Source of the DNA: a virus
Lineage: Duplodnaviria > Heunggongvirae > Uroviricota > Caudoviricetes
Direction: 5' to 3' (one strand)
IMG/VR virus record: IMGVR_UViG_2529292890_000002
Location: 1 to 26,412 of that record
DNA: 26,412 bases
Positions 8,195 to 26,412 of the stretch are shown piece after piece. The notes beneath the pieces are model-generated. The model made no database searches and was not told the origin of the DNA. It saw only the letters and a program-made list of their open reading frames with translations. Within the stretch, counting starts at the first letter, position 1. Every line of letters starts with the position of its first letter. The translations under genes were made by a program, and so were the position numbers.

Positions 8195-8197
8195 TAA

Positions 8198-8836: not shown

Positions 8837-8842
8837 AAAATT

Positions 8843-8866: not shown

Positions 8867-8890
8867 TTGCGCCAAAAACACTGCAAAAAA

Positions 8891-8980: not shown

Positions 8981-9002
8981 AAAAGCGGGGTTTCTGCGTG
9001 CG

Positions 9003-9021
9003 GGCGAGGCGGGGGAATGAG
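9003..9021. other. Probable cos (cohesive-end) site
   Basis: GGCGAGGCGGGGGAATGAG matches the start of the P2 cos sequence (GGCGAGGCGGGGAAAGCAC, recalled from memory); position between the cargo and Q is as in P2. Confidence 0.5.
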
Positions 9022-9231
9022 CGCGCGCTGAGGGGTGGGATAGGGTCGGTATTATCTGCGCCGATTTTCGCGCCGCTGCGCCTCGCTGCTGCGTCGTTTT
9101 CGGTTCGCTGTGGTGGTTTGAGGCAAAAGAAAAGCCCCTGCCAGCGGGCTGCTGAGGGGCTTACGTGCGGTGTGGTCAGTTGCGGCCGTGCTGGCCGTTC
9201 CACGGTGGTGGTGGGTGTGTCCGGGCTGGCG

Positions 9232-11994: not shown

Positions 11995-12040
11995 GGCAAC
12001 AGGCTATCGCGCTCGCGCGCGCAACAATATCGCCGCTTGT

Positions 12041-12058
12041 TGTCGCCTGAGTCCGACA
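12041..12058. promoter_or_regulatory. TGT-N12-ACA dyad (Ogr/Delta-type late activator site) in the P/O divergent region
   Basis: TGT CGCCTGAGTCCG ACA, part of the inverted repeat TTGTCG-N8-CGACAA, about 100 bp upstream of the O start. Confidence 0.5.
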
Positions 12059-12147
12059 AAGTGAAGGCTTTGCGCCTTCAGGCTGCAAAGGGAATGATTG
12101 GGGCACTGGTTAATATCAATCGCTTACCAACCCGGAGCTTTGTCACC

Positions 12148-12993
12148 ATGCCAATGACAAATTTTTTCCGCGTCGCAGTCGAAGGCGCAACCTGTGATGG
12201 CCGCGTGCTGGAACGTCAGCACATTATCGAAATGGCCGAGCAGTACGATCCCCAGGTCTATGGCGCCCGCGTCAATCTGGAACACATTTTAGGCTGGTCT
12301 CCAAACAGTGATTTTCGTGCTTACGGCGACGTTGCTGAAACGAAATATGAAGAAATCGCCGAAGGCCAGTTAAAGGGCAAGTTGGCGCTTCTGGTGAAGG
12401 TGGACGCCACGGATGAACTGGTCGAACTGAAGAAGAAACGCCAGAAAATCTACCATAGCATTGAGGTGCATCCGTCCTTTGCCGACACCGGCAAAGCCTA
12501 CCTTATGGGACTGGCCTGTACCGATAACCCGGCAAGCCTGGGCACCGAAATGATGAAGTTTTGCACCCAGAACGCCAGCGCCAACCCACTGGCCGCGCGT
12601 CACTACGCACCTGAATGCTTCTTCACTGAAACCCTGGAATCATCCCTCGAATTTGCGCAGGAAGAGCCGCCAGCTTCCGACACCGGGAAGAATTTCTTTT
12701 CCCGTATCAAGGAAATGCTGACCGGAACCCGCCAGCACTTCGATCGTGAAAATGGCGATATCCGCCAGGCGGTTGAACTGGTAGCGGAAAGTCAGGGTGA
12801 ATTGCTGGACAAGATGGAAAAACTGAGCGCAGGGCAGCTTAAGAACAAGCAGACCGCCGAAGCGGTGGATAAGTTGCGCTCTGAGTTCGACGAGATGAAA
12901 GCGCAGCTTTCTACCCAGGACGCCAGCAAATACCGCCGCCCGGAAGCGACCGGCGCAACTGAAAAATCTAACGCCCAGCTTGCTGACTGCTGA
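12148..12993 (+). CDS. O: Capsid scaffolding protein (P2 gpO-like)
   Basis: Start at ATG 12148 (GGAG 10 nt upstream), in frame within the longer track ORF; N-terminus FFRVAVEGATCDGRV...NLEH resembles P2 gpO as recalled. Confidence 0.85.
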   Translation: MPMTNFFRVAVEGATCDGRVLERQHIIEMAEQYDPQVYGARVNLEHILGWSPNSDFRAYGDVAETKYEEIAEGQLKGKLALLVKVDATDELVELKKKRQKIYHSIEVHPSFADTGKAYLMGLACTDNPASLGTEMMKFCTQNASANPLAARHYAPECFFTETLESSLEFAQEEPPASDTGKNFFSRIKEMLTGTRQHFDRENGDIRQAVELVAESQGELLDKMEKLSAGQLKNKQTAEAVDKLRSEFDEMKAQLSTQDASKYRRPEATGATEKSNAQLADC

Positions 12994-13033: not shown

Positions 13034-14080
13034 ATGCGTAATTCTACCCGTGAATTGTTTGATGCGTATCTTGAGCGACAGGCCGAACTCAATCACATCA
13101 ACAAATCCCACGTAACAAAGGCGTTCAGCATTGATCCGAGCGTTGAGCAGACGCTTGAAGACAAAGTGCAACAGTCTTCTGAAATGTTGAAGAAGATTAA
13201 TATCTACGGCGTTAACGATCAGTCCGGTGAAAAAATCGGTCTGGGTGTGAGCGGCCCGATCTCCAGCACCAACAATTCCACCACCGATCGCCGCCAGCCT
13301 GTTTCCGTCACGGCGCTGGATTCGAACAAATACACCTGTAATAAGGTGAACGCGGATACTTTCGCCTCTTATGCGCAGCTTGATGCCTGGGCTAAATTCC
13401 CGGATTTCCAGCAGCGACTGAGCAATCAGATCATTCAGCGTATCGCGCTTGACCGCATCATGATCGGCTTTAACGGAACCAGCTACGCGGATAAGTCCGA
13501 CCGCAACGCTAACCCGCTTTTGCAGGATTGTGGTATCGGCTGGCTGCAACAGTACCGCGCAAACGCGCCGCAACGAGTCATGAAAGATATCACCGTGACC
13601 AGCCGCGACGATTCCAACCAGGTGATCGCTAAAGGTGATTACGGTAACTACGATTCGCTGGTTTATGACGCGGTCAACTCACTGATGGACGAGTGGTACA
13701 AAGATTCGCCCAATCTGGTGGTGATCACTGGTCGTAACCTGACGGTTAGCCGTTCGTTCCCGATCATCAATGCCGTAAGCACCAATAACCCGAACTCCGA
13801 AGCGCTGGCCGGTCAGTTGATCGCATCGCGTAAGACGATCGGCAACCTGCCTTCGTTCATCGCGCCTTTCTTCCCTGATGGCAGCATGTTTATCACTTCG
13901 TGGGAGAACCTGTCGATTTACTGGCAGGAAGGTGCGCACCGCCGCCGCATTGTGGAAGAGCCGGAATATAACCGCGTCTCTACCTACAGTTCGTCAAATG
14001 ATGCCTATGTTGTTGAAGATTACGGCTTCGGCTGTCTGATCGAAGGCATTACCGCCGCCGAACCAGCACCGGCACCATAA
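13034..14080 (+). CDS. N: Major capsid protein (P2 gpN-like)
   Basis: 348 aa with ATG and AGGAA upstream; position after the scaffold gene; resemblance to P2 gpN as recalled. Confidence 0.9.
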   Translation: MRNSTRELFDAYLERQAELNHINKSHVTKAFSIDPSVEQTLEDKVQQSSEMLKKINIYGVNDQSGEKIGLGVSGPISSTNNSTTDRRQPVSVTALDSNKYTCNKVNADTFASYAQLDAWAKFPDFQQRLSNQIIQRIALDRIMIGFNGTSYADKSDRNANPLLQDCGIGWLQQYRANAPQRVMKDITVTSRDDSNQVIAKGDYGNYDSLVYDAVNSLMDEWYKDSPNLVVITGRNLTVSRSFPIINAVSTNNPNSEALAGQLIASRKTIGNLPSFIAPFFPDGSMFITSWENLSIYWQEGAHRRRIVEEPEYNRVSTYSSSNDAYVVEDYGFGCLIEGITAAEPAPAP

Positions 14081-14122
14081 ATCAGCGCAGGCCAGCTAAT
14101 TGCTGGCCGCTTTGGGGGCATC

Positions 14123-14971
14123 ATGTTGACACCTGCTCAACAACATTTTAACCGCGTGATGGCTGAACGCCGCCACACCAGCCGTGAGCCGTCGCAGCTT
14201 GAAATGACGGCCTACGAAACCATGCTTCACCGCCTGCGACTGGATAAAGCCCGTTTGAGCCGTGTCCAGTCCCAGAAGGCTAAAGCGGATTTAAAACGCG
14301 AACTGCTGCCGGATTACCAGCCGTGGATCGAAGGCGTACTTACGGCAGATTCCGGCCAGTCTGACGACGTGTTAACCACTATCATGATCTGGTGTTGTGA
14401 CTGCGGAAACATCGCCGAAGCCCTGCGAATTGGTCAGTACGTGTTGCGCCATAAGTTGCCGATGCCGGATCAGTATCGCCGCACCACCGCCACCGTACTG
14501 GTGGAAGAAATTTGCGATCCCGTCCTAGCTGCATTCAAAGCTAACCCAGCTGTTGCGCCGGTCGCCGCTGACCTGCTGGAAGCGTTACGGGGCTTAACCC
14601 TGAATGAAGATATGCCGGATGAGGTGCGCTCAAAGCTGCTTAAGGCGCTGGGGTATACGCTGCGCCTGACTGACAACGTTGAATCGCTTACCGCTGCGGT
14701 TGAATACCTGCGCCAGGCGGCAGTGTTGAACCCGAAAAAAGCAGGCGTAACCCGTGATATTGAGCTTCTGCAACGTGCGCTTAAGAAGTCCGGGCAACCT
14801 GCTGACGGTGACGGCGCAGACGCCAAGCCAGAAGCAAACAGCACCGAAACCCAGACGGCAACGCTGCCAGCCCAGCCAAAAGCGAAGCGGGAAACCAAAA
14901 AGCCCGCCGCTAAAAGCAAGCCGGCAGCGAAGAAAAGAACCACGACAGCCCGCCAGAAGGCGGCTTCATAA
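14123..14971 (+). CDS. M: Terminase small / endonuclease subunit (P2 gpM-like)
   Basis: 282 aa; KRELLPDYQPWIEGVL and DMPDEVRSKL resemble P2 gpM as recalled, including a Lys/Ala/Pro-rich basic C-terminal tail. Confidence 0.85.
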   Translation: MLTPAQQHFNRVMAERRHTSREPSQLEMTAYETMLHRLRLDKARLSRVQSQKAKADLKRELLPDYQPWIEGVLTADSGQSDDVLTTIMIWCCDCGNIAEALRIGQYVLRHKLPMPDQYRRTTATVLVEEICDPVLAAFKANPAVAPVAADLLEALRGLTLNEDMPDEVRSKLLKALGYTLRLTDNVESLTAAVEYLRQAAVLNPKKAGVTRDIELLQRALKKSGQPADGDGADAKPEANSTETQTATLPAQPKAKRETKKPAAKSKPAAKKRTTTARQKAAS

Positions 14972-15073
14972 CCGAACGTGCCCCCGCGCACCCAGGCGGC
15001 ACGGCAGGCGAAAACAGGCAACACCGCGTCTTCGTCCTGCCGTCCACCGCCTGACTTATACGGAGTAGAGATC

Positions 15074-15562
15074 ATGAGTCTGGTAGCCACTGAGCCAGTA
15101 CGGCCACCATCCGATCCAGTGCCTGATGATGGCGGCGCGAAGGTTGAAAGCCTGCCATTCTGGCCGGTCATTTCGCTGGCTGAACTACGCCGCGCGATGC
15201 GTCTTGATGGGCAGGTGACAACCGATCGCCTGATGTCGCGAACGGTGGAAGCGGTGGCCCATGTTAATGATCAGCTTTTCCTGTGGCGCCAGGTGCAGAT
15301 TGATGCGGGATATCAGGCATTGGCAGAAATTCCGGCAAGTCCGGTGAATGGCATTTCCGTGAAGGTATGGCGCTATAAAAACGCCGTGTATTCACTCACT
15401 AAGGCGCTGTTAATTGAAGGCTACCGCGATATTGACACCACCAGTAAAGGCGAAGACCACGCGGCGGCATTAAGCACGCAGATCGATACGCTGTGGCGGG
15501 ATGTGCGCTGGTCAATCCGTGATATCCAGGACGAAAGCCGGGGCCTGGCGGAGTTGGTGTAA
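15074..15562 (+). CDS. L: Head completion / stabilisation protein (P2 gpL-like)
   Basis: Start at ATG 15074 (GGAG upstream), in frame within track ORF 14978..15562; stop overlaps the X start (TAATG). Confidence 0.8.
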   Translation: MSLVATEPVRPPSDPVPDDGGAKVESLPFWPVISLAELRRAMRLDGQVTTDRLMSRTVEAVAHVNDQLFLWRQVQIDAGYQALAEIPASPVNGISVKVWRYKNAVYSLTKALLIEGYRDIDTTSKGEDHAAALSTQIDTLWRDVRWSIRDIQDESRGLAELV

Positions 15563-15762
15563 TGAACGTTCAGGCGCAGCAAAACGACACAATCGACCTG
15601 CTTTGCTGGCGCTATTACGGCAGAACAGCAGGCGTTACCGAGGCGGTGATCGATGCCAATAAGGGCATTTCCGCCGCCACTGAGTTGCAGGCCGGGCAGA
15701 TTGTTTACCTGCCAGAGATCCAGCCGCCAGCCCAGCGGGAAACCGTGCAGCTATGGGATTGA
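15562..15762 (+). CDS. X: Tail protein X (P2 gpX-like)
   Basis: 66 aa; WRYYGRTAGVTEAV...LPEIQ...VQLWD resembles P2 gpX as recalled. Confidence 0.75.
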   Translation: MNVQAQQNDTIDLLCWRYYGRTAGVTEAVIDANKGISAATELQAGQIVYLPEIQPPAQRETVQLWD

Positions 15763-15802
15763 TTAAAAATGAATAATTCAGAGGATTAAGCGGGGTGTAA
15801 GT

Positions 15803-16192
15803 ATGGTCGGTGAGCCAATTTCCGGCGCTGCCGCTGCAACGGTGACAATTACAGGCGTCACATTTGCCAGCATGTTATCAGGCACTGACGCGGGCGTTTT
15901 TGTCGGCGCTTTTGCCGGGGCTGTGGTGTATGTGCTTTCCGCTGCTGAGTTAAGCCGGTTCGCTCAAATTGGGTATTTCATTGCTTCTTTTTTGATTGGT
16001 GTACTCGCGGCAGATATGACAACCGGGTTTATCACGTTGGCGATCGGTAAGTACCTCCCTGACGGCATCACGGTGGGTAAATCTATTGGGGCAACCGTCG
16101 CCGCCGCGCTGGGGGTTTATGTACTTCTCATGCTCAGAAAAATAAACCCAGGGCGTTTATTTTCGGGGGGTGGCGATGGTAACGCTAAATGA
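15803..16192 (+). CDS. Holin-like membrane protein
   Basis: 129 aa with several hydrophobic helices, directly upstream of the endolysin in the late operon. Confidence 0.55.
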   Translation: MVGEPISGAAAATVTITGVTFASMLSGTDAGVFVGAFAGAVVYVLSAAELSRFAQIGYFIASFLIGVLAADMTTGFITLAIGKYLPDGITVGKSIGATVAAALGVYVLLMLRKINPGRLFSGGGDGNAK

Positions 16193-16496
16193 AGTTCTCC
16201 TTATCGTGAATGCAATTACATGCGCAGTAATCGCGGTAACTTTGGGTACTTATCAGCGCAATGGGGCAAAGCATAAGCGAATGGCTGCTTTGTTTGCCTG
16301 GGTGCTCATTGTTGCGTGCGGTTCAGTCACCATCCTGATCGTTACCGGAAGGTATTCAACCGCAAACTTTGCGGAGACGGCGATCAATATGGCGCTCTGT
16401 GTGGCTGTTTTATCGGCCAAAGGCAACGTCATGAAGATTGTTAACAGATCGGACGTAATGAGCATAAGCAAACGAGGTGCCCGTAATGGCAAATAA
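16176..16496 (+). CDS. Second holin/antiholin-like membrane protein
   Basis: About 106 aa from ATG 16176 (alternative GTG at 16170); two to three hydrophobic helices; overlaps both neighbours. Confidence 0.5.
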   Translation: MVTLNEVLLIVNAITCAVIAVTLGTYQRNGAKHKRMAALFAWVLIVACGSVTILIVTGRYSTANFAETAINMALCVAVLSAKGNVMKIVNRSDVMSISKRGARNGK

Positions 16497-16878
16497 CTTT
16501 AAATTCAGTCAGCGGAGTGAAAATAACCTGCGTGGTGTGCATCCCGATCTGGTGAAGGTAGTCAGGCTGGCGCTGGAGCTTTCGCCGGTTGATTTCGGCA
16601 TTACGGAAGGTTTGCGTACTGTCGAACGTCAAAAGCAACTGGTTGCGGAAGGTAAAAGCCAGACTATGAACAGCAGGCATATTTCCGGCCATGCCGTTGA
16701 TGTTTTCGCTTATCCAACGCCTGCCGGTTCATGGGACTGGCAGTATTACCAGCAGATTTCCCAGGCGTTTAAGCAGGCGGGTAAAAATCTGGGCATTCCG
16801 GTGGAGTGGGGCGGAGACTGGAAGACGCTTAAAGACGGGCCACATTTCCAGTTACCTTATGCCGATTACCCTGCCTGA
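16486..16878 (+). CDS. Endolysin, M15-family zinc peptidase type (L-alanyl-D-glutamate endopeptidase-like)
   Basis: ATG 16486 with GAGG 8 nt upstream; metal-binding pattern SRHISGHAVDV ... DGPHFQL (H-x6-D ... H) typical of VanY/M15 peptidases. Confidence 0.75.
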   Translation: MANNFKFSQRSENNLRGVHPDLVKVVRLALELSPVDFGITEGLRTVERQKQLVAEGKSQTMNSRHISGHAVDVFAYPTPAGSWDWQYYQQISQAFKQAGKNLGIPVEWGGDWKTLKDGPHFQLPYADYPA

Positions 16879-16895
16879 TGTGCTGTGCAGGTCAT

Positions 16896-16970
16896 TTTTA
16901 ATTGTGCTGGCCGTGCGTATCGAGCGCGGTCATTTTTGACAGTGCTCCAGCACGTCCGGTATTGACGGTG
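16896..16970. repeat. Copy 1 of a ~70-bp direct repeat, with internal sub-repeats GGTCATTTTT-N-GTGCT and a GTGCT-CC-AGCAC dyad
   Basis: Hand alignment to 22981-23055: a 21-bp identical core GTGCTGGCCGTGCGTATCGAG plus about 46 further positions at roughly 70% identity (about 80% overall). Confidence 0.7.
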
Positions 16971-16992
16971 CGAGCTGGCGAGAGGTTTTGAA

Positions 16993-17526
16993 ATGGGGCT
17001 GTTTTCACGCTGGAAAGTGATCGTTTGTCTTGTGCTGGCCGCTGCTGCTGTCTGGGGTTTTAGCCACTGGCGTTACAGTGCCGGTTATGGTGATGCCGAT
17101 CAGCACTGGCGTGAAGAGTGGGCGCAACGTGATGCACGCGACGCCACTGCGCTGGCACAAAGGCAGGCTAAGGCCAGGGCAGAAGAACAACGCCGACAAG
17201 GTGAAATTGATGCGATCAGAAAACAAGCCAGCCAGCAGCTTGCTGGCGTGCAGGCTGATGCCGATCGTGCCCGTGCTGCTTCTCGTGGGCTGCACGACAG
17301 GGCCGACAAACTCGCCAGGCAACTGGCAGACCGTGAACGCGCCTGCGGTGCCGGAACTCCCGGCAGAAGCGAGGCAGAAACCAGCGGCGCCGTACTGCTC
17401 GCCGACCTGTTCCGCCGCGCTGACGATCGAGCGGGGCAACTGGCAAAAGATGCTGATGAAGCAAGAGCCAGAGGATTAGCCTGTGAGGCTGCATATGATG
17501 CGGTTAAGTCCGGGAGGGATAAGTAA
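16993..17526 (+). CDS. i-spanin (Rz / LysB-like)
   Basis: N-terminal transmembrane anchor KVIVCLVLAAAAVWGF then a charged, Ala/Arg/Gln-rich coiled-coil-like periplasmic region; GAGAGG SD; follows the endolysin. Confidence 0.7.
   Translation: MGLFSRWKVIVCLVLAAAAVWGFSHWRYSAGYGDADQHWREEWAQRDARDATALAQRQAKARAEEQRRQGEIDAIRKQASQQLAGVQADADRARAASRGLHDRADKLARQLADRERACGAGTPGRSEAETSGAVLLADLFRRADDRAGQLAKDADEARARGLACEAAYDAVKSGRDK
17210..17479 (+). CDS. o-spanin (Rz1 / LysC-like lipoprotein) embedded in the +1 frame of the i-spanin gene
   Basis: ATG 17210 with AAGGTG SD; signal peptide ending in lipobox LLVGC; Pro-rich mature part; alternative start at 17258. Confidence 0.6.
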   Translation: MRSENKPASSLLACRLMPIVPVLLLVGCTTGPTNSPGNWQTVNAPAVPELPAEARQKPAAPYCSPTCSAALTIERGNWQKMLMKQEPED

Positions 17527-18020
17527 TGCTTAAACCCGATTTGCTGCGCCAGATGATAAGCCAGCATGTGCCCTGGCTGCGCGAGAATCCCGATAATCTG
17601 GCGGTTTACCTGCGTAAAGGCCGTATGGTCAGCACCGGCCAGCGTGCTGCTGCGTTTGAGTATCGCTATACGCTGGAAGTGCTGGTGATGGATTACCCTG
17701 AATCTCTGGATACTATCAGTGTGCCGGTGCTGGCATGGGCGCGCTTATATCAGCCTGATCTGTTGTTTAACCCGGACAGGCAGCAGAACGGGATAACATT
17801 CGAAGCCGATATCCTGAGTAACAGCACGATGGACGTGCTGATCCAGATTCAGACTGATGAAGCGGTGATCGTCACCCGTGAAGATGGCGAGATCGTCACC
17901 CGTCACCGTGCTGACCCTGCGCCGGGGCCAGAAATTGGCGCGTGGTCACTGGTATTTGTTGATGAGGTCAGCGGCGAAACATGGCAGGACAACAAACCGA
18001 TCCCCTCTTCCAGCAGTTAG
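17526..18020 (+). CDS. R: Tail completion protein R (P2 gpR-like)
   Basis: 164 aa; N-terminus MLKPDLLRQ and VPVLAW...QPD resemble P2 gpR as recalled; start overlaps the spanin stop (TAATG). Confidence 0.8.
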   Translation: MLKPDLLRQMISQHVPWLRENPDNLAVYLRKGRMVSTGQRAAAFEYRYTLEVLVMDYPESLDTISVPVLAWARLYQPDLLFNPDRQQNGITFEADILSNSTMDVLIQIQTDEAVIVTREDGEIVTRHRADPAPGPEIGAWSLVFVDEVSGETWQDNKPIPSSSS

Positions 18021-18625
18021 ACGACTGGCTAGCCAGTGTGGCCGCGCAGCTTTCACCGGGGCACCGTCGCAAGCTGACGCGCGACGTTGCGATCGGGCTG
18101 CGTAAGCGTCAGCAAAAGCGTATCGCCAGCCAGAAGAACCCCAGCGGCGAAAGCTATCAGGCCCGCCGCCGCAAAATCCTGCGCACCCAGGGCGGGATAA
18201 AGTTCATATGGAATGATGAAGCCAGGGAGTTACGCAACTGGCGAACCACGGGCAGGGGAGAGCACCGCGCAATCACCGGCTATGACGTGGATCGCGGTGC
18301 ACTGCGCACGTTCTATAAGCGCGATATCCAGCGCTATATTGAAATCAATCTCAACCAGTCAAAGCAGAACCGTACCAGAAAGGATCCGATGTTCCGCAAG
18401 CTGCGCACCGCACGCTTTCTTAAGGCTTACGGTACGGGCGGCATGGCTGTGGTTGGCTTTCAGGGGCATACCGCCGAAATTGCCAGCGTTCACCAGTACG
18501 GTGAAGTCGATAACGTGGTGCCGGGTGCCCGTGCACGCTACCCGGTGCGTGAACTCCTGGGCATGACCGAGGGGGATTTAGACTGGCTGGCTGATACTGT
18601 TGTCGCCTTCATGCAAGAGATTTGA
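17981..18625 (+). CDS. S: Virion morphogenesis / tail completion protein S (P2 gpS-like), longer than P2 S
   Basis: 214 aa; QKNPSGESYQARRRK and C-terminal YPVRELLGMTEGDL resemble gpS-family proteins; start overlaps the R 3' end; start codon uncertain. Confidence 0.65.
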   Translation: MAGQQTDPLFQQLDDWLASVAAQLSPGHRRKLTRDVAIGLRKRQQKRIASQKNPSGESYQARRRKILRTQGGIKFIWNDEARELRNWRTTGRGEHRAITGYDVDRGALRTFYKRDIQRYIEINLNQSKQNRTRKDPMFRKLRTARFLKAYGTGGMAVVGFQGHTAEIASVHQYGEVDNVVPGARARYPVRELLGMTEGDLDWLADTVVAFMQEI

Positions 18626-18626
18626 T

Positions 18627-18644
18627 TGTCACCAACCCGCCACA
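18627..18644. promoter_or_regulatory. TGT-N12-ACA dyad (late activator site) upstream of V
   Basis: TGT CACCAACCCGCC ACA just past the S stop, about 150 bp upstream of the V start. Confidence 0.45.
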
Positions 18645-18782
18645 ATGGCGCTGCGTTGTTTGCGCGCGCGCGACTCCTGATACTGACTGCATAACCCAAA
18701 AGCCGAAACGGTCGTAAAGCCTGCTACCGGGTGGAAGCGACGCCGGACAGCGTAACCGGCACCACGGGAAACAGTCAGCACT

Positions 18783-19412
18783 ATGAATTTAAACGAACTC
18801 TATCGCCTTATCTGCAATCTCGCCCGCATTGGCACCGTGCTGGAAGTGAATACGGAAAAGTACCTTGCGCGCGTCGAAACAGGCGAGAACAAAACCGACT
18901 GGATCCGCTGGGCAGTGCCGCGCGCCGGTGAAGCCGTGACGTGGTGGGCGCCGACAGTGGGCGAACAGGTTTATATTTTGTGCCCCTGCGGTGAGATGGA
19001 AACGGCATTCATTGCCGGAAGCCTTTACAGCGAAGACGCACCGCCGCCAGATGCTGGCGCTACCACCTGCGTGATCTTGCACCCGGATGGCGCCCGTATC
19101 TCATATGACCCGGAGGCCAGCGCGCTGGTTGTCAGCGGGGTGAAAACGGCAAGCGTCACCGCGTCGGAATCCATTACCGCCACCGTGCCGGTGGTAACGG
19201 TCAAGGCAGATACGCGCGTTACCCTGGACACGCCGGAAGTGGTCTGCACCAACAAGCTGATCACCGCCACGCTGGAAGTACAAAACGGCGGGGAAATGAA
19301 GGGCAATATTACCCATTCAGGCGGATCGCTTTCGTCTAATGGTGTCGTTGTCCATTCGCACAAACATAGTGGCGTTCAGTCCGGTGGCAGTAATACAGGT
19401 GGCCCGGTATGA
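18783..19412 (+). CDS. V: Baseplate assembly / spike protein V (P2 gpV-like)
   Basis: 209 aa; Gly/Ser-rich C-terminus HSHKHSGVQSGGSNTGGPV; position and resemblance to P2 gpV as recalled. Confidence 0.85.
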   Translation: MNLNELYRLICNLARIGTVLEVNTEKYLARVETGENKTDWIRWAVPRAGEAVTWWAPTVGEQVYILCPCGEMETAFIAGSLYSEDAPPPDAGATTCVILHPDGARISYDPEASALVVSGVKTASVTASESITATVPVVTVKADTRVTLDTPEVVCTNKLITATLEVQNGGEMKGNITHSGGSLSSNGVVVHSHKHSGVQSGGSNTGGPV

Positions 19413-19771
19413 GTACAGTCCGTTACAGCGGCATGAATGCCAGTTCAGGCCATGCCATCACCGACAACGAGCATATAGCGCAGTCTATCGGCGATATTCT
19501 GTTAACGCCGATCGGTTCCCGTGTAATGCGCCGCGCTTACGGTTCGCAGCTTTTCAACCTGATAGATCAGCCGGTCGATAACGCCATAACGAAGCTGCGC
19601 GTTATGTCTGCTATCTACAGCGCCCTGTATTTATGGGAACCGCGGATCTCTCTGACCAGTATCACCCTGAGCGCGCCGGGTGCCGGTCGGCTGGTTGCCA
19701 CTATCCAGGCCAATCGCACTGACAATCAGACGCCATTTAACGCCGATATCACATTGAGGGGCCAGGCATGA
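19409..19771 (+). CDS. W: Baseplate wedge protein W (GPW/gp25 family)
   Basis: 120 aa; start overlaps the V stop (ATGA); resemblance to gp25-like baseplate proteins as recalled. Confidence 0.85.
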   Translation: MSTVRYSGMNASSGHAITDNEHIAQSIGDILLTPIGSRVMRRAYGSQLFNLIDQPVDNAITKLRVMSAIYSALYLWEPRISLTSITLSAPGAGRLVATIQANRTDNQTPFNADITLRGQA

Positions 19772-20679
19772 GCGGCACGATCGATTTATCACAGCTACCG
19801 CCGCCCGTGGTGGTTGAACCGCTGGACTTCGAAACGCTTTTCGCGCAGCGCAAGGCCGCATTTATTGCGATGTACCCGGAAGACGAACAGGAAGAGATCG
19901 CCCGCACGCTTGAGCTTGAATCGGAGCCGATCACCATGCTGCTGGAAGAAAATTGCTATCGCGAATTGCTGTTGCGCCAGCGGGTGAATGAAGCGGCCCG
20001 CGCGGTGATGCTGGCTTATTCCACAGATAGCGATCTGGATAATCTGGCGGTCAATTTCAACGTTGAACGTCTGACCATTCAGGAGGAAGACGACAGCGTT
20101 ACCCCGCCAATTGAAGCCGTGATGGAGTCAGACGCGGATTTACGCACGCGTACCCAGCAGGCGTTTGAAGGTCTGAGCGTGGCCGGGCCAACGGCGGCGT
20201 ATGAATTTTGGGGGCGTTCGGCTGACGGGCGCGTAGCTGATATTTCGGCGGTCAGTCCTACGCCTGCCTGCGTCACCATTTCGGTGCTGTCGCGTGAGGG
20301 TGACGGAACGGCCAACGATGATCTGCTTTCCGTGGTCGCTGCTGCCCTGAACGATGAAGAGGTGCGCCCGGTGGCCGACAGGGTAACGGTGCAGTCTGCG
20401 GAGATCGTGCCGTATCAGATCGATGCAACGCTTTACATCTATCCGGGGCCGGAAGCCGAACCCGTCCGGCAGGCATCGGAGCAACAGTTACAGGCGTATA
20501 TTGCCGCGCAGAATCGCTTAGGGCGTGATATCCGTCTTTCAGCTATCTACGCCGCCCTGCACGTCGAAGGCGTCCAGCGCGTGGAACTGGCGCAGCCTGT
20601 TGCGGATATCGTGCTGAGTGACTACCAGGCATCGCACTGCACCGAATACACCATAACGGTGGGTGGTTACGATGAGTAA
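19768..20679 (+). CDS. J: Baseplate assembly protein J
   Basis: 303 aa; start overlaps the W stop; position between W and I as in P2. Confidence 0.85.
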   Translation: MSGTIDLSQLPPPVVVEPLDFETLFAQRKAAFIAMYPEDEQEEIARTLELESEPITMLLEENCYRELLLRQRVNEAARAVMLAYSTDSDLDNLAVNFNVERLTIQEEDDSVTPPIEAVMESDADLRTRTQQAFEGLSVAGPTAAYEFWGRSADGRVADISAVSPTPACVTISVLSREGDGTANDDLLSVVAAALNDEEVRPVADRVTVQSAEIVPYQIDATLYIYPGPEAEPVRQASEQQLQAYIAAQNRLGRDIRLSAIYAALHVEGVQRVELAQPVADIVLSDYQASHCTEYTITVGGYDE

Positions 20680-21286
20680 TGACCTGTTACCACCCAGCGC
20701 CAGCCGAATGGAGAGAGTCGCCGCGCGCGTCTGTGCGTCGTTGGGTGAAGTGCCCGTGCCGCTGCGTCAGTTGTGGAACCCGTGGACGTGTCGGGCTGAT
20801 CTGCTGCCCTATCTGGCGTGGGCCTTCTCCGTTGATCGCTGGGATGAGTCCTGGCCGATCAGCACGAAGCGTAAGGCGGTAGCCGATGCGTTCTACCTGC
20901 ATAAGTACAAGGGTACAACGGGCGCCATGCGCCGGGTTGTGGAGCCGTTCGGCTTCTTCATCCGGGTTAACGAGTGGTGGAACATCGACACCGCACCAGG
21001 CACTTTCACGCTGGATATTGGGGTGGAAGACCAGGGCATTAGTGAAGAAACCTATCAGGAGCTTGAACGCCTGATCGCCGATGTGAAGCCGTGCAGCCGT
21101 CATATGCTGGGAATGTCTCTTCACCTGCAAACAACTGGCGATTTGTATATCGGCGCGGGCAGTTATTCCGGCGATACGCTGACCGTATACCCGTATTTCC
21201 CTGAAACCATAGCCGTGGGCGGTGATGATTACACCGGGGCGGCAATCCATTTAATTGACACCGTGGAGATCGCAAGTGGCGACTAA
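20672..21286 (+). CDS. I: Tail / baseplate protein I
   Basis: Start at ATG 20672 (alternative GTG 20663); about 204 aa; position between J and H. Confidence 0.8.
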   Translation: MSNDLLPPSASRMERVAARVCASLGEVPVPLRQLWNPWTCRADLLPYLAWAFSVDRWDESWPISTKRKAVADAFYLHKYKGTTGAMRRVVEPFGFFIRVNEWWNIDTAPGTFTLDIGVEDQGISEETYQELERLIADVKPCSRHMLGMSLHLQTTGDLYIGAGSYSGDTLTVYPYFPETIAVGGDDYTGAAIHLIDTVEIASGD

Positions 21287-22358
21287 ATATTATGCCGTGC
21301 TAACCAATGTGGGCGCAGCGAAACTGGCAAATGCCACGGCATTGGGTGCGCAGGTTGAGATCACCCAGATGGCTGTAGGCGATGGTAACGGCGCATTGCC
21401 GACGCCGAACCCGGCACAAACGGCGCTGGTTCATGAGTTGCGCCGCGCGCCACTCAATACCCTGAGCATTGATCCGAACAACGCCAACCAGATTATTGCC
21501 GAACAGGTGATCCACGAAGACGTGGGCGGGTGGTGGATCCGTGAAATCGGCTTATTCGATAAAGACGGCGATATGATTGCCGTAGCCAACTGCGCGGAAA
21601 CCTATAAGCCGCAGTTGCAGGAAGGTAGCGGGCGCGTTCAGATTGTCCGCATGATCCTGATAGTCAGCAGCACCGCCGCCGTGACTCTGAAAATTGACCC
21701 TTCGGTAGTGCTGGCAACGCGCCAGTATGTTGATGATCAGATAATCCAGGTGAAAGCCTATGTTGATCAGCAACTGGCGGCGCATGTGGCTGCGGCTGAT
21801 CCTCATGCGCAATATTTGCTTGAGTCGGATTTTGATAAATTTTTCCCGGTAGGTTTTCCGCTTCCGTGGCCGCAGGCAACGCCGCCAGGCGGCTGGCTTA
21901 AATGCAATGGTGCAACGTTCGATAAGGTCAAATATCCGAAGCTGGCGACGGCTTACCCTTCTGGCGTATTACCAGATTTGCGCGGTGAGTTTTTGAGAGG
22001 TTGGGATGATGGGCGTGGGGTTGATGTAAACCGAGTATTGTTAAGTTCCCAGAGTGAGGATTTAAAGGGCCATCGGCATGAGTCCTATTTCTATGCGGGG
22101 ATCAGCAGAAATGAAGTGCCTTTAACTAGCTTGGATAGTTCGTGTGAAATGCTAACATTAAGCTCAACAACCAATGCACTCGCACCAACGGATATAGATA
22201 CCAGCGGCACTCTTATCGGTAATGATGATTATAACTGTCTGGCCGAAGGTAATAAAAACAACAAACGAACTGCAACAGGATTAAGTTCCACCATTGTAGG
22301 TGGAGGCGAAACTCGTCCGCGAAACGTATCATTTAATTATATCGTGAGGGCTGCATAA
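21276..22358 (+). CDS. H: Tail fibre protein H (short, about 360 aa) with AT-rich distal part
   Basis: Start at GTG 21276 (GGAG 7 nt upstream; track's first codon is TTG at 21255); N-terminus ATKYYAVLTNVGAAKLANA...MAVGDGNG resembles the conserved P2 gpH N-terminus as recalled. Confidence 0.75.
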   Translation: MATKYYAVLTNVGAAKLANATALGAQVEITQMAVGDGNGALPTPNPAQTALVHELRRAPLNTLSIDPNNANQIIAEQVIHEDVGGWWIREIGLFDKDGDMIAVANCAETYKPQLQEGSGRVQIVRMILIVSSTAAVTLKIDPSVVLATRQYVDDQIIQVKAYVDQQLAAHVAAADPHAQYLLESDFDKFFPVGFPLPWPQATPPGGWLKCNGATFDKVKYPKLATAYPSGVLPDLRGEFLRGWDDGRGVDVNRVLLSSQSEDLKGHRHESYFYAGISRNEVPLTSLDSSCEMLTLSSTTNALAPTDIDTSGTLIGNDDYNCLAEGNKNNKRTATGLSSTIVGGGETRPRNVSFNYIVRAA

Positions 22359-22954
22359 TGACGCAGGCAGAATTAAACAGCGAACTTATTGCTACTGTGG
22401 CAGGTGATATCACGGTATTCAATTACGATGGGGAAACACGCGAATATTTAACTTCAATGGTTGAATATCTGGCGGAAGGTGTTGGCCTTCCTGCAAATTC
22501 ATGCACCGATGCGCCAAGCGAAAGTAAAGAGGGATTTGCTATTTGTCGAACAGCAGATTTTACCGCATGGGAATACGTCGCCGATCACCGTGGTGAAACG
22601 GTATACAGCACTAAAACAGGCGAATCGGAGATCGTTTCTTTGCCTGGCGATTACCCGGAGGGTACTACCACGCTGGCACCTTCGACACCTTACGATACGT
22701 GGAACGGTAGCGAGTGGGTAACAGATACGGAAACGCAGCACGCGGCGGACGTGGAAGCGGCGGAGCAACAGAAAGCTGCGCTACTCCTTGAGGCGCAGGC
22801 AACGATCAGTCTATGGCAGACGGAGCTACAGTTAGGCATTATCAGCGATGAAGATAAAGCCAGCCTGATCGCCTGGATGAACTACATCAAAGCCGTGCAG
22901 GCGGTGGATACCTCGAAAGCGCCGGATATCACCTGGCCGGATAAGCCGGAATAA
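22358..22954 (+). CDS. G: Tail fibre assembly protein G (Tfa-like)
   Basis: 198 aa; start overlaps the H stop (TAATG); directly downstream of the fibre gene. Confidence 0.8.
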   Translation: MTQAELNSELIATVAGDITVFNYDGETREYLTSMVEYLAEGVGLPANSCTDAPSESKEGFAICRTADFTAWEYVADHRGETVYSTKTGESEIVSLPGDYPEGTTTLAPSTPYDTWNGSEWVTDTETQHAADVEAAEQQKAALLLEAQATISLWQTELQLGIISDEDKASLIAWMNYIKAVQAVDTSKAPDITWPDKPE

Positions 22955-22980
22955 GTTTTCATTCCGGCACGCATGGCCGG

Positions 22981-23055
22981 TTCTAACCGTGCTGGCCGTG
23001 CGTATCGAGTACAGTCATTTTTAACGGTGCTGTAGCACGGTCAGTTATGGCGGTG
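22981..23055. repeat. Copy 2 of the ~70-bp direct repeat, in the convergent G/U intergenic region
   Basis: Aligns to 16896-16970 (identical 21-bp core GTGCTGGCCGTGCGTATCGAG; GTGCT-GT-AGCAC dyad). Confidence 0.7.
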
Positions 23056-23071
23056 TGTTCCGGAAGACGAA

Positions 23072-23093
23072 GCGGGCAAAGGCCCGCTTTTCT
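23072..23093 (+). terminator. Rho-independent terminator at the convergent G/U junction (likely bidirectional)
   Basis: Stem GCGGGC, loop AAAG, stem GCCCGC, then TTTTCT; A-rich GAAGACGAA on the 5' side. Confidence 0.6.
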
Positions 23094-23542
23094 TATATCG
23101 AAAGGTTGGTTTTCACCAGAGAGAAGAGATCGTCGATGGTCGTTTCGGCCAGCTTTTCCCGTATGTCCTCGCTTACCCGTTTCAGGTTGAGCGTAAAATC
23201 AATTTTCTTTGCCTTCCCGTCCTTAAAAAACTCCGTCCGGTTTTGTGTGATCTGCTCAATTACATACATGCCGTAGATCCTGCCCGTGCCTTCTATCAGG
23301 GGCCACGGGCGCCCGGAAAAAGCCATAGTTTCCAGCATGACAAGCGACACATCACCGCCGCTTATTTCGGGGTACAGCGTGCCGCTGAGTACGAACGGTT
23401 CTTCATCTGCGCCGATGAACTGATAGCGCGGGGATTTCCCCACGCGATCGTTTTTGACGTGCCGCCAGGAGTTGGTTTTATTCGCACTCTGGTAAGGCGT
23501 GGTTTGCAGTGAAAAGGGGAACATCCCCAGAATCATCATCAT
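23093..23542 (-). CDS. U: Tail protein U (P2 gpU-like)
   Basis: 149 aa beginning MMMILGMFPFSLQTTPYQ, with SGTLYPEISGG and GMYVIEQI resembling P2 gpU as recalled; directly downstream of the tape-measure gene on the minus strand. Confidence 0.85.
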   Translation of the reverse strand: MMMILGMFPFSLQTTPYQSANKTNSWRHVKNDRVGKSPRYQFIGADEEPFVLSGTLYPEISGGDVSLVMLETMAFSGRPWPLIEGTGRIYGMYVIEQITQNRTEFFKDGKAKKIDFTLNLKRVSEDIREKLAETTIDDLFSLVKTNLSI

Positions 23543-23552
23543 GATATTGCCC

Positions 23553-26412
23553 TTAGACGTGATCGGTCAGTTGGGAACGCTTGCGCCGGTCGGCCTGCTG
23601 CTTCGCTAACGCAAGTTCTTCGCGCACGCGCCTGATAATAGTTTCTTCATCCAGTTTCTGGCCGCTAAAGTCGAAGTTAAGGTTATATACATCGCCGCCC
23701 GGCGCAGGCATGAGCGCAGCGACGGAAGCCGCAGACGGCGACGCCGAAACGGGCACCCGTGCGGCGGGCTTCTCAACCTGCCACGGCGTAACGGAAGCGA
23801 TCAGCGATCCGGCCTGCTGCGTCACCCAATCGGTAAGGGATGGTAGCTGGCGCTGCGCCTGCTTAAGCGGTTCCGAATATCCGCCACGGATCGGGATATA
23901 GGGTTGCTTATTCTTGAAGACGATTTCGCCGGGCCCGTCTTTCTTCTCCGTGGTATTGGTGGCGATCTTGTCCAGGCTACTGCTCATCTTCGGCACGATG
24001 TTGGCCGGGCCTTTGAGCGAGTTAATCAGGTTGTCCTGTTTTTTCTGCTTATCGGTTTTCTTTTTCTCTTCGGCTTTTTTACTTTCCTTCGCGACTGCCT
24101 GCACGTCACCGGAAAAGGCGTTAACCCGGTCTGCCAGATTGTTGACCGCTTCCGGCGTCATTTGCTGCGCAACCTGCTGCGCTGCTTTCGCTGCGTCGGG
24201 AATGGCGCCCAGCTTTTCCAGAATCCAGCCCAGCCCTTTGGCTACGGCCTGAATAGGTAGCGTCAGCGCGCTGATTGCGGCACCTACAACCTTGCCGAAC
24301 GTTTCCCCGGCACTTGTGCAGGATGCCAGCGCTTCATTGGAAAACTGGATCGGTTCCAGCAGTTTGGTAAACCACTCCCAGACGCCGCTGATCGCGTTGC
24401 CGATACTGTCAAAAATCGGGGCCAGCGGTGCAAATACGGCGTTAAATGCCTGCGTGATAGGTTGAAGGCCAGCCATCAGCCCGGTAAAGAACCCGCTGAA
24501 AAATGCCTTAATCGGTTGCCAGAATTTAATGACGGCCACTGCTGCCGCAGCAAAGAGCGCAATCAGCCCCCAGACGGGCGCAGAAATGCCAGCCAGTAGA
24601 GTGATAAGCGGGCCGAATACCATGCGACCGGCGCTTAACAATGCCTGCATAGGCGAGCCAGCAAGCCACTGAAACGCACCACCCAGGCGCATTACTCCAC
24701 CAGTCAGCCGCGCTATTCCTCCTTCACCGGCCAACGTGGTGAAACTGAGGCGAACAAGTGCCATCGGGCCGAGAACTGCGCCGATGGACAGCATCAGGCC
24801 ACCCACGACAACCAGCAACGCGCCTATGGCTGCGGTGACTTTCATGATTGAGCCAACCAGAGCAGGGTTAGCCTCAACCCAGCGGCGGACGCTGCCAACC
24901 ACCTTACTGACGGTAAGCATGATATCCATCAGTGGTTCGCGGAGCGTTTCCCCTGCTGAACTGAATGCGTTAACCGCGCCGGTTTTGGTCAATTGCCACT
25001 GAGCAGAAAGGGAAGCTTTGTTGATATCAGATTCCCGATTCATGGAACCTTTAGCGGCTGCGCCCTGCGTCAGTTCTATCTGGCGGCGTAGTTCGGGCAG
25101 GTTGTTGGCAAGTTTCTGCGCGTCGTCGCCGAACTCTTTGCCGAAAATCTGGGTAAGGTTGGCTACCTGCTGATCCGGGGCCAGTTTTTTGGACGCTTCC
25201 AGCACTGAAATAATTGTGCCCATCGCGTCCACTGACATGCTCTTCTGAACTTTTTCGGCGCTGAGGCCGAGGGCGTCCAGACCCTGCATAAAGTTTTTGC
25301 CCTGAACCGTAGCGATTGAGAGTTCGCGCACCATTGCATTGGTGGCGCTGGCGGCAACTTCGGCAGGGGTGCCGAGCGTCAGAAAGGTGGAACCCAGCGC
25401 GGCGGCTTGCTTGTAATCCAGTTGGCTGGCAAGCCCCCCAACGCGCTGGAGTACGTCGATAATATCGGAGCCTTTAGACTTCGCGTTATCGTCCAGGTAG
25501 TTAATGGCGTCTCCCAACTGCTCAATATTCTGCGTGGGGATCTTGTACAGCCCGGCGATTTTACCGAGGCTTTCAGAAAGCTGATCGGCGGGAAGTTCGA
25601 AGGCAACAGAAGCCTTTGCCGCCATACTGGCGAAGGACAGCAGATCGGCTTTTTGCTTTTGCCACGGATCATCGCTGTTTGCTACGCCCATGCGCGCACC
25701 GCCTTCGACCAGGGCGGCATAGTCAACAGCGCCGTTAGCCATTGGTAGCTTTTCGCTGGCATCCATGATCGCCCGCTGCATTTCTTCATACTGCGGGGTT
25801 CGGTTGCCGCTGTCGTCACGCAAGCCGTTTACCTGTTTGGCTACGCCTTTCATGGCGTCTTCAAGGCTGCTGTAGGATTTAACCGCAGCGGCGACAGGTG
25901 CGAGGGTTGCCGCCCCTACTGCGGCGGTTTTCAACCCCCCGCTCATCATCTTTTCGCCGGTTTCTTTGGCGCGGCTGTAACGGGCCTGCGCCTGGTTAAC
26001 AGCGTCAAGCCGTCGTTGCTGTTCGGCAAGCTGGCGGTTGTATTGCGCGGTGCGCTGGTTGATCTGTTCCGTCGCCCGGCTGGCGCTGCTGATCGCAATG
26101 CCTTCGCTGTAGAAACTGGCGCGCAACTGGTTAAGTTGCGTCTGCTCGCCTTTCTGCTGCTGGGTTAACTGGCGAATGGCTGCACGTTGCTGATTGAGGG
26201 CGGCAACCTGTTCGGCGCTGCGCTGGCGTAACGGGCCATAAGCCGCCGCCATTTGCCGGGCCTGTTCTTTCGCCTGGGCCAGTTGTTCGGTGGTTTTTTT
26301 ATTGGCTGCGGTGAGGCGGTCGAAGCTGGTTGCCTGACGCTCAAGCCCTTTAATGCTGGTTTTGGTCTGATTGATTTGAGACGCCAACGCGGCGGCACTC
26401 TGGCGCGCCGCG
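23553..26412 (-). CDS. T: Tail tape-measure protein (gpT-like), 5'-truncated by the window edge
   Basis: At least 952 codons with no stop to the window end (the track's TTG at 26387 is not the true start); Ala/Gln-rich N-terminal region, long hydrophobic Gly/Ala/Leu-rich central segment, typical of tape-measure proteins. Confidence 0.85.
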   Translation of the reverse strand, partial: AARQSAAALASQINQTKTSIKGLERQATSFDRLTAANKKTTEQLAQAKEQARQMAAAYGPLRQRSAEQVAALNQQRAAIRQLTQQQKGEQTQLNQLRASFYSEGIAISSASRATEQINQRTAQYNRQLAEQQRRLDAVNQAQARYSRAKETGEKMMSGGLKTAAVGAATLAPVAAAVKSYSSLEDAMKGVAKQVNGLRDDSGNRTPQYEEMQRAIMDASEKLPMANGAVDYAALVEGGARMGVANSDDPWQKQKADLLSFASMAAKASVAFELPADQLSESLGKIAGLYKIPTQNIEQLGDAINYLDDNAKSKGSDIIDVLQRVGGLASQLDYKQAAALGSTFLTLGTPAEVAASATNAMVRELSIATVQGKNFMQGLDALGLSAEKVQKSMSVDAMGTIISVLEASKKLAPDQQVANLTQIFGKEFGDDAQKLANNLPELRRQIELTQGAAAKGSMNRESDINKASLSAQWQLTKTGAVNAFSSAGETLREPLMDIMLTVSKVVGSVRRWVEANPALVGSIMKVTAAIGALLVVVGGLMLSIGAVLGPMALVRLSFTTLAGEGGIARLTGGVMRLGGAFQWLAGSPMQALLSAGRMVFGPLITLLAGISAPVWGLIALFAAAAVAVIKFWQPIKAFFSGFFTGLMAGLQPITQAFNAVFAPLAPIFDSIGNAISGVWEWFTKLLEPIQFSNEALASCTSAGETFGKVVGAAISALTLPIQAVAKGLGWILEKLGAIPDAAKAAQQVAQQMTPEAVNNLADRVNAFSGDVQAVAKESKKAEEKKKTDKQKKQDNLINSLKGPANIVPKMSSSLDKIATNTTEKKDGPGEIVFKNKQPYIPIRGGYSEPLKQAQRQLPSLTDWVTQQAGSLIASVTPWQVEKPAARVPVSASPSAASVAALMPAPGGDVYNLNFDFSGQKLDEETIIRRVREELALAKQQADRRKRSQLTDHV

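Follow-up and report, generated by a model that had tools for sequence, protein, structure and literature searches.

An inverted FI to U tail gene block is the normal gene order in a large branch of P2-like prophages

Gene organization of the tail region

The DNA analysed here, referred to as the window, is 26,412 nt long and ends within the tail genes of a P2-like prophage. The last-but-one gene of the V operon is the tail fibre gene H (21276..22358, + strand), which encodes a protein of 360 amino acids with a PF12571 and a Collar domain. It is followed on the same strand by the tail-fibre assembly gene G (22358..22954, 198 aa; PF02413 Caudo_TAP, E 5e-36; phrog_105, E 7e-88), and then by an intergenic gap of 138 bp (22955-23092). 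On the other side of the gap, the gene order continues on the - strand with the gene for the tail protein gpU (23093..23542, 149 aa; PF06995, E 5e-39; phrog_76), which here closes the inverted F operon, and with the tape-measure gene T (23553..26412; phrog_28, E 5e-143; PF10145), which is cut by the window end. This layout, with G ending at 22954 and U and the tape-measure gene running against it after 138 bp, had been reported in the initial annotation, and is borne out by the open reading frames and the family matches alike.

A contig that is 100% identical to the window (L002) was used to read past position 26412. H is called in this contig at 11185-12267, and T is present at its full length of 975 amino acids (7063-9990), with its ATG about 68 nt past the window end. 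The question raised earlier, whether E, FII and FI follow on the - strand and where D and ogr are located, can be answered from this contig. E/E', FII and FI do follow on the - strand, D and ogr come next on the + strand, and E. coli fieF-pfkA comes thereafter. The observation that nothing D-like is present downstream of U was correct. D is found beyond FI, outside the window.

The P2 map (Peduovirus P2, NC_001895) that had been used for comparison is also accurate. In P2, G is on the + strand, Z/fun on the - strand, and FI, FII, E, E', T, U, D and ogr are all on the + strand, with an overlap of 1 nt between U and D. The gene set of P2 and its Pfam families are present in the prophage, namely gpV/W/J/I, H/G, FI, FII, E/E', T, U, D and the Ogr/Delta zinc-finger activator, as judged from Pfam and PHROG matches in the window, and with FI, FII, E, D and Ogr called in L002. 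However, P2 has FI through D in one operon, co-directional with and downstream of V-G and Z/fun, whereas in the prophage FI-FII-E-E'-T-U is inverted, D is a separate unit divergent from FI, and a Z/fun gene is lacking. D and ogr still run in the direction of V-G. The order is thus that of SEN4 and P88, with U-T-E-FII-FI antiparallel to V-G, and with D and ogr divergent from FI.

The similarity to SEN4/SEN5 (Senquatrovirus) extends beyond the gene order (G / U T E' E FII FI / D) to the element at the junction and the terminator. ICTV delimits genera at approximately 70% genome-wide nucleotide identity. For the pair SEN4/SEN5, nucleotide identity is 90-97.5% across about 79% of the window, and for SEN5 it is 93-97%; the individual blastn segments, which together cover this share of the 26.4-kb window, range over 83-97.5%, the window being a part of the phage genome. 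SEN4/SEN5 are known to produce virions with contractile tails (PMC5261728). They differ from the prophage in the cassette of H C-terminus and G, in the cargo of the early region, and in their host, which is S. enterica subsp. salamae instead of E. coli. In addition, SEN5 has an extra macro-domain gene.

The spacer between G and U

The G/U spacer contains the relic of a serine DNA-invertase gene (22961..22986, + strand), consisting of the last 26 nt of the gene including the stop codon. The relic agrees at every position (100% identity) with the 3' end of a recombinase coding sequence in E. coli EcPF16 (L109, 8445-9026, with Resolvase and HTH_7 domains), and a longer invertase relic is retained in SEN5. 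An imperfect palindrome of about 104 nt (22962..23066, TTCCGG...CCGGAA, not assigned to a strand) contains the second copy of a repeat (22981-23055), the first copy of which is located between the endolysin and a DUF2514/Rz-like gene (16896..16970, + strand). The repeat of about 70 bp noticed earlier is real. It spans 75 nt, over which the two copies are 79% identical, with 88% identity in a 43-nt core. Across related loci, the palindrome/repeat element adjoins U in either orientation. As RNA, the 138-nt gap has a predicted folding energy of -67.7 kcal/mol, with z scores of -6.4 for the + strand and -4.9 for the - strand. A scan of the whole window against Rfam did not yield any family over threshold, and hence the palindrome and repeat at the junction do not represent a known RNA.

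Next to U, an intrinsic terminator hairpin with a 9-bp stem including 6 GC pairs is followed by TCTTATAT (23069..23090, + strand). The T-run is present on the + strand only. On the - strand, the hairpin is preceded by GAAAA and followed by CGTCTTCC. For transcripts coming from G it is thus a canonical terminator, whereas for U it would be a weak one at most. The bidirectional terminator proposed earlier is borne out in part. The closest relatives have the same hairpin behind the stop codon of U, and other GC hairpins are found at this place in more distant members.

Spacers that are strongly palindromic and carry repeats can confuse assemblers, and the convergence of G and U could in principle reflect an assembly chimera or a mis-oriented scaffold. 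However, the same junction and gene order are found in more than 80 independent viral contigs, in the virion-derived complete genomes of SEN4/SEN5 and P88, and in closed E. coli chromosomes. The presence of the junction in independent assemblies refutes an assembly artefact, to which we attach a practically negligible probability.

Conservation and distribution of the inverted gene order

The gene order was surveyed by tblastn of tail proteins on 104 loci. The inverted order is present in all 84 loci with a gpU that is at least 59% identical, and the 20 more distant genome loci have the P2 order. Among isolated phages, the inverted order is seen in four ICTV genera. Apart from SEN4/SEN5, it is found in Escherichia phage P88 (Xuanwuvirus), Enterobacter phage phiT5282H (Novemvirus) and Klebsiella phage ST16-OXA48phi5.4 (Reipivirus), which share with the prophage the inverted FI-U block, the divergence of D and ogr from FI, and the membership in one clade of the FI+FII+U+D tree (see below). 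A scan of viral contigs with the P88 gpU retrieved only copies that were 99-100% identical, and did not add diversity. Identity of gpU alone was also considered as a proxy for the arrangement. A split between at least 59% and at most 55% fits the sampled loci, but fails for P88 and phiT5282H, which are inverted despite gpU identities of only 53-54%, and trees were used instead. Of 5426 complete E. coli genomes, 1356 have the P88-type FI/D divergent junction, 30 the SEN4-type junction, and 1571 the P2-type U-D junction, so that a prophage with the inverted block is present in about one quarter of them.

The arrangement is neither an anomaly nor a chimera, nor is it heterogeneous. The initial annotation had allowed for the case that close relatives might have convergent G and U as their normal conserved order, and this is what is found in 84 of 84 relatives and in isolated phages. 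In a large and common branch of P2-like phages, the flipped block is fixed and represents the normal order. In one recent survey, the core organisation of P2-like phages is called "extremely conserved" (PMC13586616), and an explicit description of the inversion was not found in the searched literature on SEN4/5, P88, phiSM, Serratia PP4, Mannheimia phages, Senquatrovirus and the 2026 P2/P4 defence hotspots. Smp131 has a rearranged tail operon as well, but of a different kind, which indicates that such changes occur elsewhere among P2-like phages.

The invertase relic at the junction raises the possibility that the FI-U block is a switchable segment, flipped by the Gin/Cin/Pin-type serine invertase that is found by G in sister prophages. 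An intact invertase is indeed present between the fibre genes and U in P88, phage 520873 and EcPF16. However, it flanks H/G cassettes in these relatives (G' and H' in P88), as in a classical fibre switch, and the window does not contain an intact invertase gene. Moreover, the other orientation was observed in none of the 84 relatives with gpU at least 59% identical, and a comparison of the G/U junction with the D/FI junction did not reveal inverted repeats, the best match being 8 nt long (E 0.23) and at chance level. A block that still switches is therefore very improbable. An ancient, one-off aberrant event catalysed by an invertase is conceivable, and would leave no trace.

Phylogeny and mosaicism

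Trees were built by simple neighbor joining on tblastn-derived fragments from 35-37 taxa, with 200 bootstraps. In the tree for FI+FII+U+D, the split between inverted and P2-order loci was recovered in 200 of 200 replicates, and the prophage falls in the inverted clade, which is thus observed to be monophyletic. Taken singly, D and FI recover the split in 200, U in 196, and FII in 170 of 200 replicates. These splits fit one old inversion, and a single origin would be the parsimonious reading of the trees.

The alternative proposed earlier, a mosaic in which the sheath/tube/tape-measure/U module stems from a lineage other than P2, draws on the behaviour of neighbouring genes. The baseplate genes W/J/I recover the split between inverted and P2 order in only 0-9 of 200 replicates, and J of the window is closer to P2 J (70% identity) than to J of some members of the inverted clade (54-66%). 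In addition, the C-terminus of H and G are swapped relative to SEN5; for the C-terminal part of H, SEN5 offers no match, as expected from an exchange of cassettes. The baseplate discordance may, on the other hand, be due to weak signal on short, deep branches. Moreover, every gene of the block matches P2 families, and the encoded proteins are 43-53% identical to their P2 counterparts (gpU 48%; the tape measure only 25%), compared to 50% for the non-inverted D and 49% for W. The non-inverted D also has the phylogeny of the block (200/200), and the spacing between the PF dyad and the ATG is the same as in P2 (83 nt). Import of the module is thus unlikely. Of the two explanations initially offered, the inversion of the block relative to the baseplate and fibre genes is retained. 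A separate ancestry of the tail module is not supported for the inverted block, save for some mosaicism at the fibre end. There, the failure of W/J/I to recover the split, together with the swap of H C-terminus and G, argues that the fibre end of the G/U junction is a recombination boundary.

The D/FI spacer and the predicted late promoters

The divergent genes D and FI are separated by an intergenic region of about 157 bp. Plain TGT-N12-ACA dyads are uninformative alone (4 in the window, 4.65 expected), and the stricter pattern TTGT-N12-ACAA and comparative geometry were used in place of such counts. The stricter pattern occurs exactly three times in the prophage, compared to 0.2-0.3 occurrences expected by chance. 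One dyad lies between the divergent P and O (12040..12059, + strand), as a predicted bidirectional PP/PO activator site, one between S and V (18626..18645, + strand), at the predicted late promoter PV, and one midway between D and FI (4775-4794 of L002). P2 has its activator sites at the same three places, namely at P/O and ahead of V and FI.

Exactly one TGT-N12-ACA is present in 54 of 55 unique D/FI spacers. The dyad centre is 77-85 nt from the FI ATG, and in 44 of the 55 spacers 75-85 nt from the D ATG, a conserved geometry that is not independent in each sequence, since the spacers are related by descent. A -10-like A..AT is found on both sides of the dyad centre at an offset of about 43-49 nt (44-48 nt across the aligned spacers). 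The offset equals that of the P2 PF -10 relative to the annotated site and the transcription start site, and the distance from dyad to FI ATG is also that of P2. The D side has PV of the same phage and clade as its comparator, and both have GCGTTGTT, a (GC)n tract, and a -10 at an offset of 43-48 nt. The sequence thus conforms to the Ogr/Delta-dependent late-promoter pattern, a TGT-N12-ACA dyad about 55 nt upstream of the start with a -10 at the matching offset. There are exceptions to the geometry. One locus (L048) is without an exact dyad, P88 and phiT5282H have TGT-N12-AGA, and in the subclade L074-L082 the D ATG is just 55 nt from the dyad centre, so that D would have to be translated from a leaderless mRNA or be served by another promoter.

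One TGT-N12-ACA dyad between divergent late units has precedents. A description of the consensus is available, as is one of a dyad common to PP' and PO' of Smp131 (PMC3931495), and a single site is annotated for pO and pP of P2. By analogy, the D/FI dyad probably drives both D and FI, with the difference that the P2 pair serves the packaging/head genes P and O, and that the D/FI version is predicted. The promoter PD, its start site, its dependence on Ogr, and the sharing of one site with PF are predicted from the sequence.

Discussion

Taken together, the data make it very probable that the prophage is a SEN4/SEN5-like (Senquatrovirus-type) member of the P2 family, integrated adjacent to fieF-pfkA in E. 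coli, and that FI-FII-E/E'-T-U was inverted once in an ancestor of a large branch of Peduoviridae and has been fixed since. The dyad at D/FI is probably shared by PF and a new promoter, PD. One breakpoint of the inversion would have separated the stop codon of U from the start codon of D (the two overlap in P2), and the other would have been upstream of the PF activator site, in the accessory region of G and Z/fun. Such an event would have split the F operon. As a result, the V operon, which ends with G, and the F operon, which ends with U, point towards each other across a short, structured spacer that contains a common terminator hairpin. D and ogr have stayed on the + strand, cut off from the F operon, with D divergent from FI over about 157 bp. 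A single Ogr-type dyad at the midpoint could then support two divergent late promoters, PF and PD, whose -10-like elements are both found some 44-49 nt away from the centre of the dyad. With this design, which resembles PP/PO of P2, the essential D gene would stay under late control.

With somewhat less confidence, we favor a further step, namely that a second bidirectional promoter dependent on Ogr arose from the inversion. The baseplate-hub gene D would have become an independent late unit under PD with a PV-like half, in which GCGTTGTT is combined with the (GC)n tract and the -10. The fibre/U junction may have taken over the role of the P2 Z/fun region as an accessory hotspot, with invertase, defence-like cargo and palindromic repeats. 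The content of the junction differs between phages. In P88 it consists of G'/H' and an invertase, whereas ST16-OXA48phi5.4 has DUF262 cargo there.

For the family, the findings imply that P2 alone is not a sufficient template for the gene order of P2-like prophages. The inverted FI-U block is nearly as common in complete E. coli genomes as the canonical order (1356 P88-type and 30 SEN4-type against 1571), and convergence of G on U should be treated as normal by annotators and prophage scanners. The predicted bidirectional late promoter between D and FI offers a testable case of an operon that was split while the logic of its activation was kept. If the prediction of a second Ogr-dependent bidirectional promoter is true, the branch would represent a natural experiment in which an essential operon was divided and rewired, yet stayed under late control.

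Gene order in and beyond the window

The ORF map and family searches upheld the initial annotation of the tail gene junction, with G on the plus strand (22358-22954; PF02413, phrog_105), an intergenic gap of 138 bp (22955-23092), gpU on the minus strand (23093-23542; PF06995, E 5e-39) and the tape-measure gene T, also on the minus strand, from 23553 to the window end (PF10145, phrog_28). The remainder is a P2-type prophage in prophage order, with int (132-1112, minus strand), early genes, A (4650-7037), and Q and P on the minus strand. Next come O N M L X, the lysis genes and R S V W J I H G, all on the plus strand. At the P2 tin/old position, between A and the cos/Q end (7196-8836), there are two cargo genes. 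The first encodes a 332 aa protein that contains a peptidase domain of M78/IrrE-like type and weakly matches PD-Lambda-2_B, CapP and RmrA in PADLOC, the second a 212 aa protein without any family match. The pair may be a defence or sensor cassette.

The sequence past 26412 was read from an NCBI contig (L002), which was picked up via the exact gpU protein and is 100% identical over window positions 13093-26412. In this contig, T has its full length of 975 aa, with the ATG about 68 nt past the window end, and is followed by E', E, FII and FI, all on the minus strand. After FI come D and ogr on the plus strand, two small cargo genes, and then fieF and pfkA, in a flank with 100% identity to E. coli. 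The cargo genes adjoin attR between ogr and fieF (L002 2221-3197) and encode a 110 aa protein with weak, sub-threshold zinc-ribbon matches and a 210 aa protein matching the T6SS VasI family (PF11319). In EcPF16 and another E. coli prophage, this position holds other genes or an IS4. The P2 map given in the initial annotation agrees with the annotated P2 record, in which G is on plus, Z/fun on minus and FI FII E E' T U D ogr all on plus, with a U/D overlap of one base. Compared to P2, exactly six genes, FI-FII-E-E'-T-U, are inverted, and D and ogr are oriented as V-G.

The inverted order among relatives

For gpU relatives encoded on 80 viral contigs and at 24 genome loci, all tail genes were placed by tblastn. 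All 84 loci with gpU at least 59% identical, including Hafnia, Pectobacterium and Serratia genomes, have the block inverted, and in each of them D and ogr diverge from FI. The same survey found the P2 order in all 20 more distant genome loci. The Salmonella phages SEN4 and SEN5 (Senquatrovirus), with 90-97.5% identity to the window, share its order, which is also present in P88 (Xuanwuvirus), phiT5282H (Novemvirus) and ST16-OXA48phi5.4 (Reipivirus). SEN4/5 and P88 are viable phages that form virions (PMC5261728, PMC5285337). The inversion, proposed initially as one of two readings, is real, but it is not an anomaly, since close relatives carry the convergent order as their norm, the very observation that the initial annotation had named as speaking against its view. 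The window is a prophage of the P2 family, similar to Senquatrovirus, and its genes are arranged as is typical of its branch.

Of 5426 complete E. coli genomes, a divergent D/FI junction was found in 30 (SEN4-type) and 1356 (P88-type), compared to 1571 with the co-directional U-D junction of P2. P2-like prophages of E. coli therefore commonly have one of two architectures, the second being the inverted order. The latter can be read from public annotated records, and a search of the accessible literature found no paper describing it. A 2026 survey calls the core organisation of P2-like phages 'extremely conserved' (PMC13586616); other tail-operon rearrangements in this group are on record, one of them in Smp131 (PMC3931495).

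Origin of the inverted block

The convergent genes had been attributed either to inversion of the block or to a tail module of foreign ancestry. The L002 gene order supports the former, and trees and identities to P2 speak against the latter. FI, FII, U and D were concatenated for a neighbour-joining tree (35 taxa, 1143 columns), which separated all inverted from all P2-order taxa in 200 of 200 bootstraps. Single genes gave the same split (FI 200, FII 170, U 196 and D 200 of 200), D doing so although it is not itself inverted. Identity to P2 is alike for window-lineage proteins within the block (FI 53%, FII 48%, E 43%, U 48%) and outside it (D 50%, V 60%, W 49%, I 56%, J 70%), the exception in the block being the tape measure at 25%. 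These comparisons fit a putative single, old inversion in a P2-like ancestor, rather than import of a foreign tail module.

The baseplate genes W, J and I (19409-21286), compared with FI-D of L002, fail to reproduce this split (0-9 of 200 bootstraps for J, J+I and W+J+I). In their tree, P2-order enterobacterial phages are nested among inverted ones, and the J protein of the window is 70% identical to that of P2, versus 54-66% to those of several inverted-clade members. The discordance may be due to weak signal or to later exchange of the baseplate/fibre module, in which case baseplate modules may have been exchanged between the two architectures.

Ongoing switching of the block is excluded, because a search for inverted repeats linking the G/U and D/FI junctions found none, and because the opposite orientation is absent from the relatives surveyed (84 loci with a gpU identity of 59% or more).

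The G/U junction

Almost the whole gap of 138 bp is structured (RNA fold z = -6.4 on the plus and -4.9 on the minus strand). As annotated initially, it carries the second copy (22981-23055) of a repeat, 75 nt long, here within a palindrome of about 104 nt (22962-23066). The first copy lies between the endolysin and Rz-like genes (16896-16970), and a partial third copy at 9186-9198. The element occupies intergenic sites of this phage lineage, including one at about 31280 in SEN5 (L001), adjoins U in either orientation in relatives, and occurs in the P2-like Klebsiella phage 3LV2017 and Salmonella phages SW3, SW5 and SI7. It matched no Rfam family; obvious guesses are that it acts as a terminator or attenuator, or that it is a small mobile palindrome. 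The 'bidirectional terminator' proposed initially is only partly borne out: the GC hairpin at 23069-23090 has a T-run on the plus strand only, and is thus of canonical form as a terminator of the V operon, whereas for U it would be weak at best.

The gap also contains the final 26 nt of a serine invertase gene (22961-22986). The SEN5 relic is longer, and the gene is intact in EcPF16 (L109 8445-9026; Resolvase and HTH_7 domains), P88 and phage 520873, with P88 also carrying inverted G'/H' cassettes. The loci compared include L111 25416-27564. In two viral contigs (L016, L034), the best G match is on the U strand. These findings point to a tail-fibre switch by inversion, present in relatives and lost in this prophage. 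In members of the clade, U and its nearest fibre gene are from about 100 bp to 3.6 kb apart. In P88, the space holds G'/H' and the invertase; in ST16-OXA48phi5.4, two genes, one with a DUF262 domain and one hypothetical, separate U from the tail fibre genes (L193 7809-9712). The convergent junction is hence a hotspot for accessory genes in the inverted branch, like the G/Z-fun site of P2. The H C-terminus and G (21735-22961) are without nucleotide match in SEN5, which has a longer fibre gene and a macro-domain gene instead. Since the DNA match is interrupted from 21734 to 22962, the difference is clearly a swap, of the kind typical of receptor-binding cassettes.

The D/FI spacer and a predicted shared late promoter

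In the window lineage, the D/FI spacer measures 157 bp (L002 4709-4865) and contains a single TTGT-N12-ACAA dyad (L002 4775-4794), the strict form of the activator-site consensus TGT-N12-ACA (PMC3931495). The whole prophage has three such dyads, against 0.2-0.3 expected by chance, the others being between P and O (window 12040-12059) and between S and V (18626-18645). All three locations are places of Ogr-binding sites in the P2 record. Exactly one TGT-N12-ACA is present in 54 of 55 distinct D/FI spacers of the clade; in P88 and phiT5282H, the dyad reads TGT-N12-AGA. Despite very divergent flanking sequence, the centre of TGT-N12-ACA keeps its distance to the ATG of FI (77-85 nt; 83 in P2) and, with refined start codons, to that of D (75-85 nt in 44 of 55 spacers).

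When spacers are aligned on the dyad centre, offsets 44-48 are conserved as ATGAT/ATCAT on the FI side and as A..AT on the D side, which further conserves GTT at 19-21 and a (CG)n tract at 29-34. The -10 of P2 PF (GAAAAT, 17614-17619; annotated start 17626-17628) is at equal offset from its annotated site. Predicted PO and PF of this phage have AATGAT at offsets 43-48 in common, and predicted PV shares with the D side ACAATG.CG..GCGTTGTT, a (GC)n tract and a -10 at 43-48, an architecture found in PV throughout the clade. Alternating (GC)n of about 10-13 nt between dyad and -10 is seen in predicted PV, PP and PD (window 18655-18672 and 12012-12025; L002 about 4745-4760), not in PO and PF. This Z-DNA-prone tract is clade-conserved and missing from P2 PV.

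In the L074-L082 subclade, only 55 nt separate the dyad centre from the D ATG, so that the mRNA would be leaderless or the arrangement a different one. The P ATG (window 11992-11994) is likewise about 55 nt from the P/O dyad centre. With activation from about -55, this spacing suggests that P and the D of this subclade have leaderless late mRNAs or mis-assigned starts. On the other side, the O (scaffold) start annotated in SEN5 is the ATG at window 12094, within the predicted PO -10 (AATGAT, 12093-12098). Within 12094-12160, a better fit is the start at 12149, which has GGAG in front of it, and O as annotated in SEN5 is probably too long by 18 codons.

The genes from FI to D are driven in P2 by a single late promoter, PF, and the inversion severs D from it. 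We infer that the one dyad would serve, and activate, both PF and a divergent, predicted PD, in the same way as a single annotated P2 site (3057-3087), flanked by the pP and pO starts (3016 and 3127), serves both of these promoters. The predicted late promoter common to D and FI would be a modest addition that can be tested, and the position of D beside a symmetric activator site is a simple possible reason why the inversion was tolerated.
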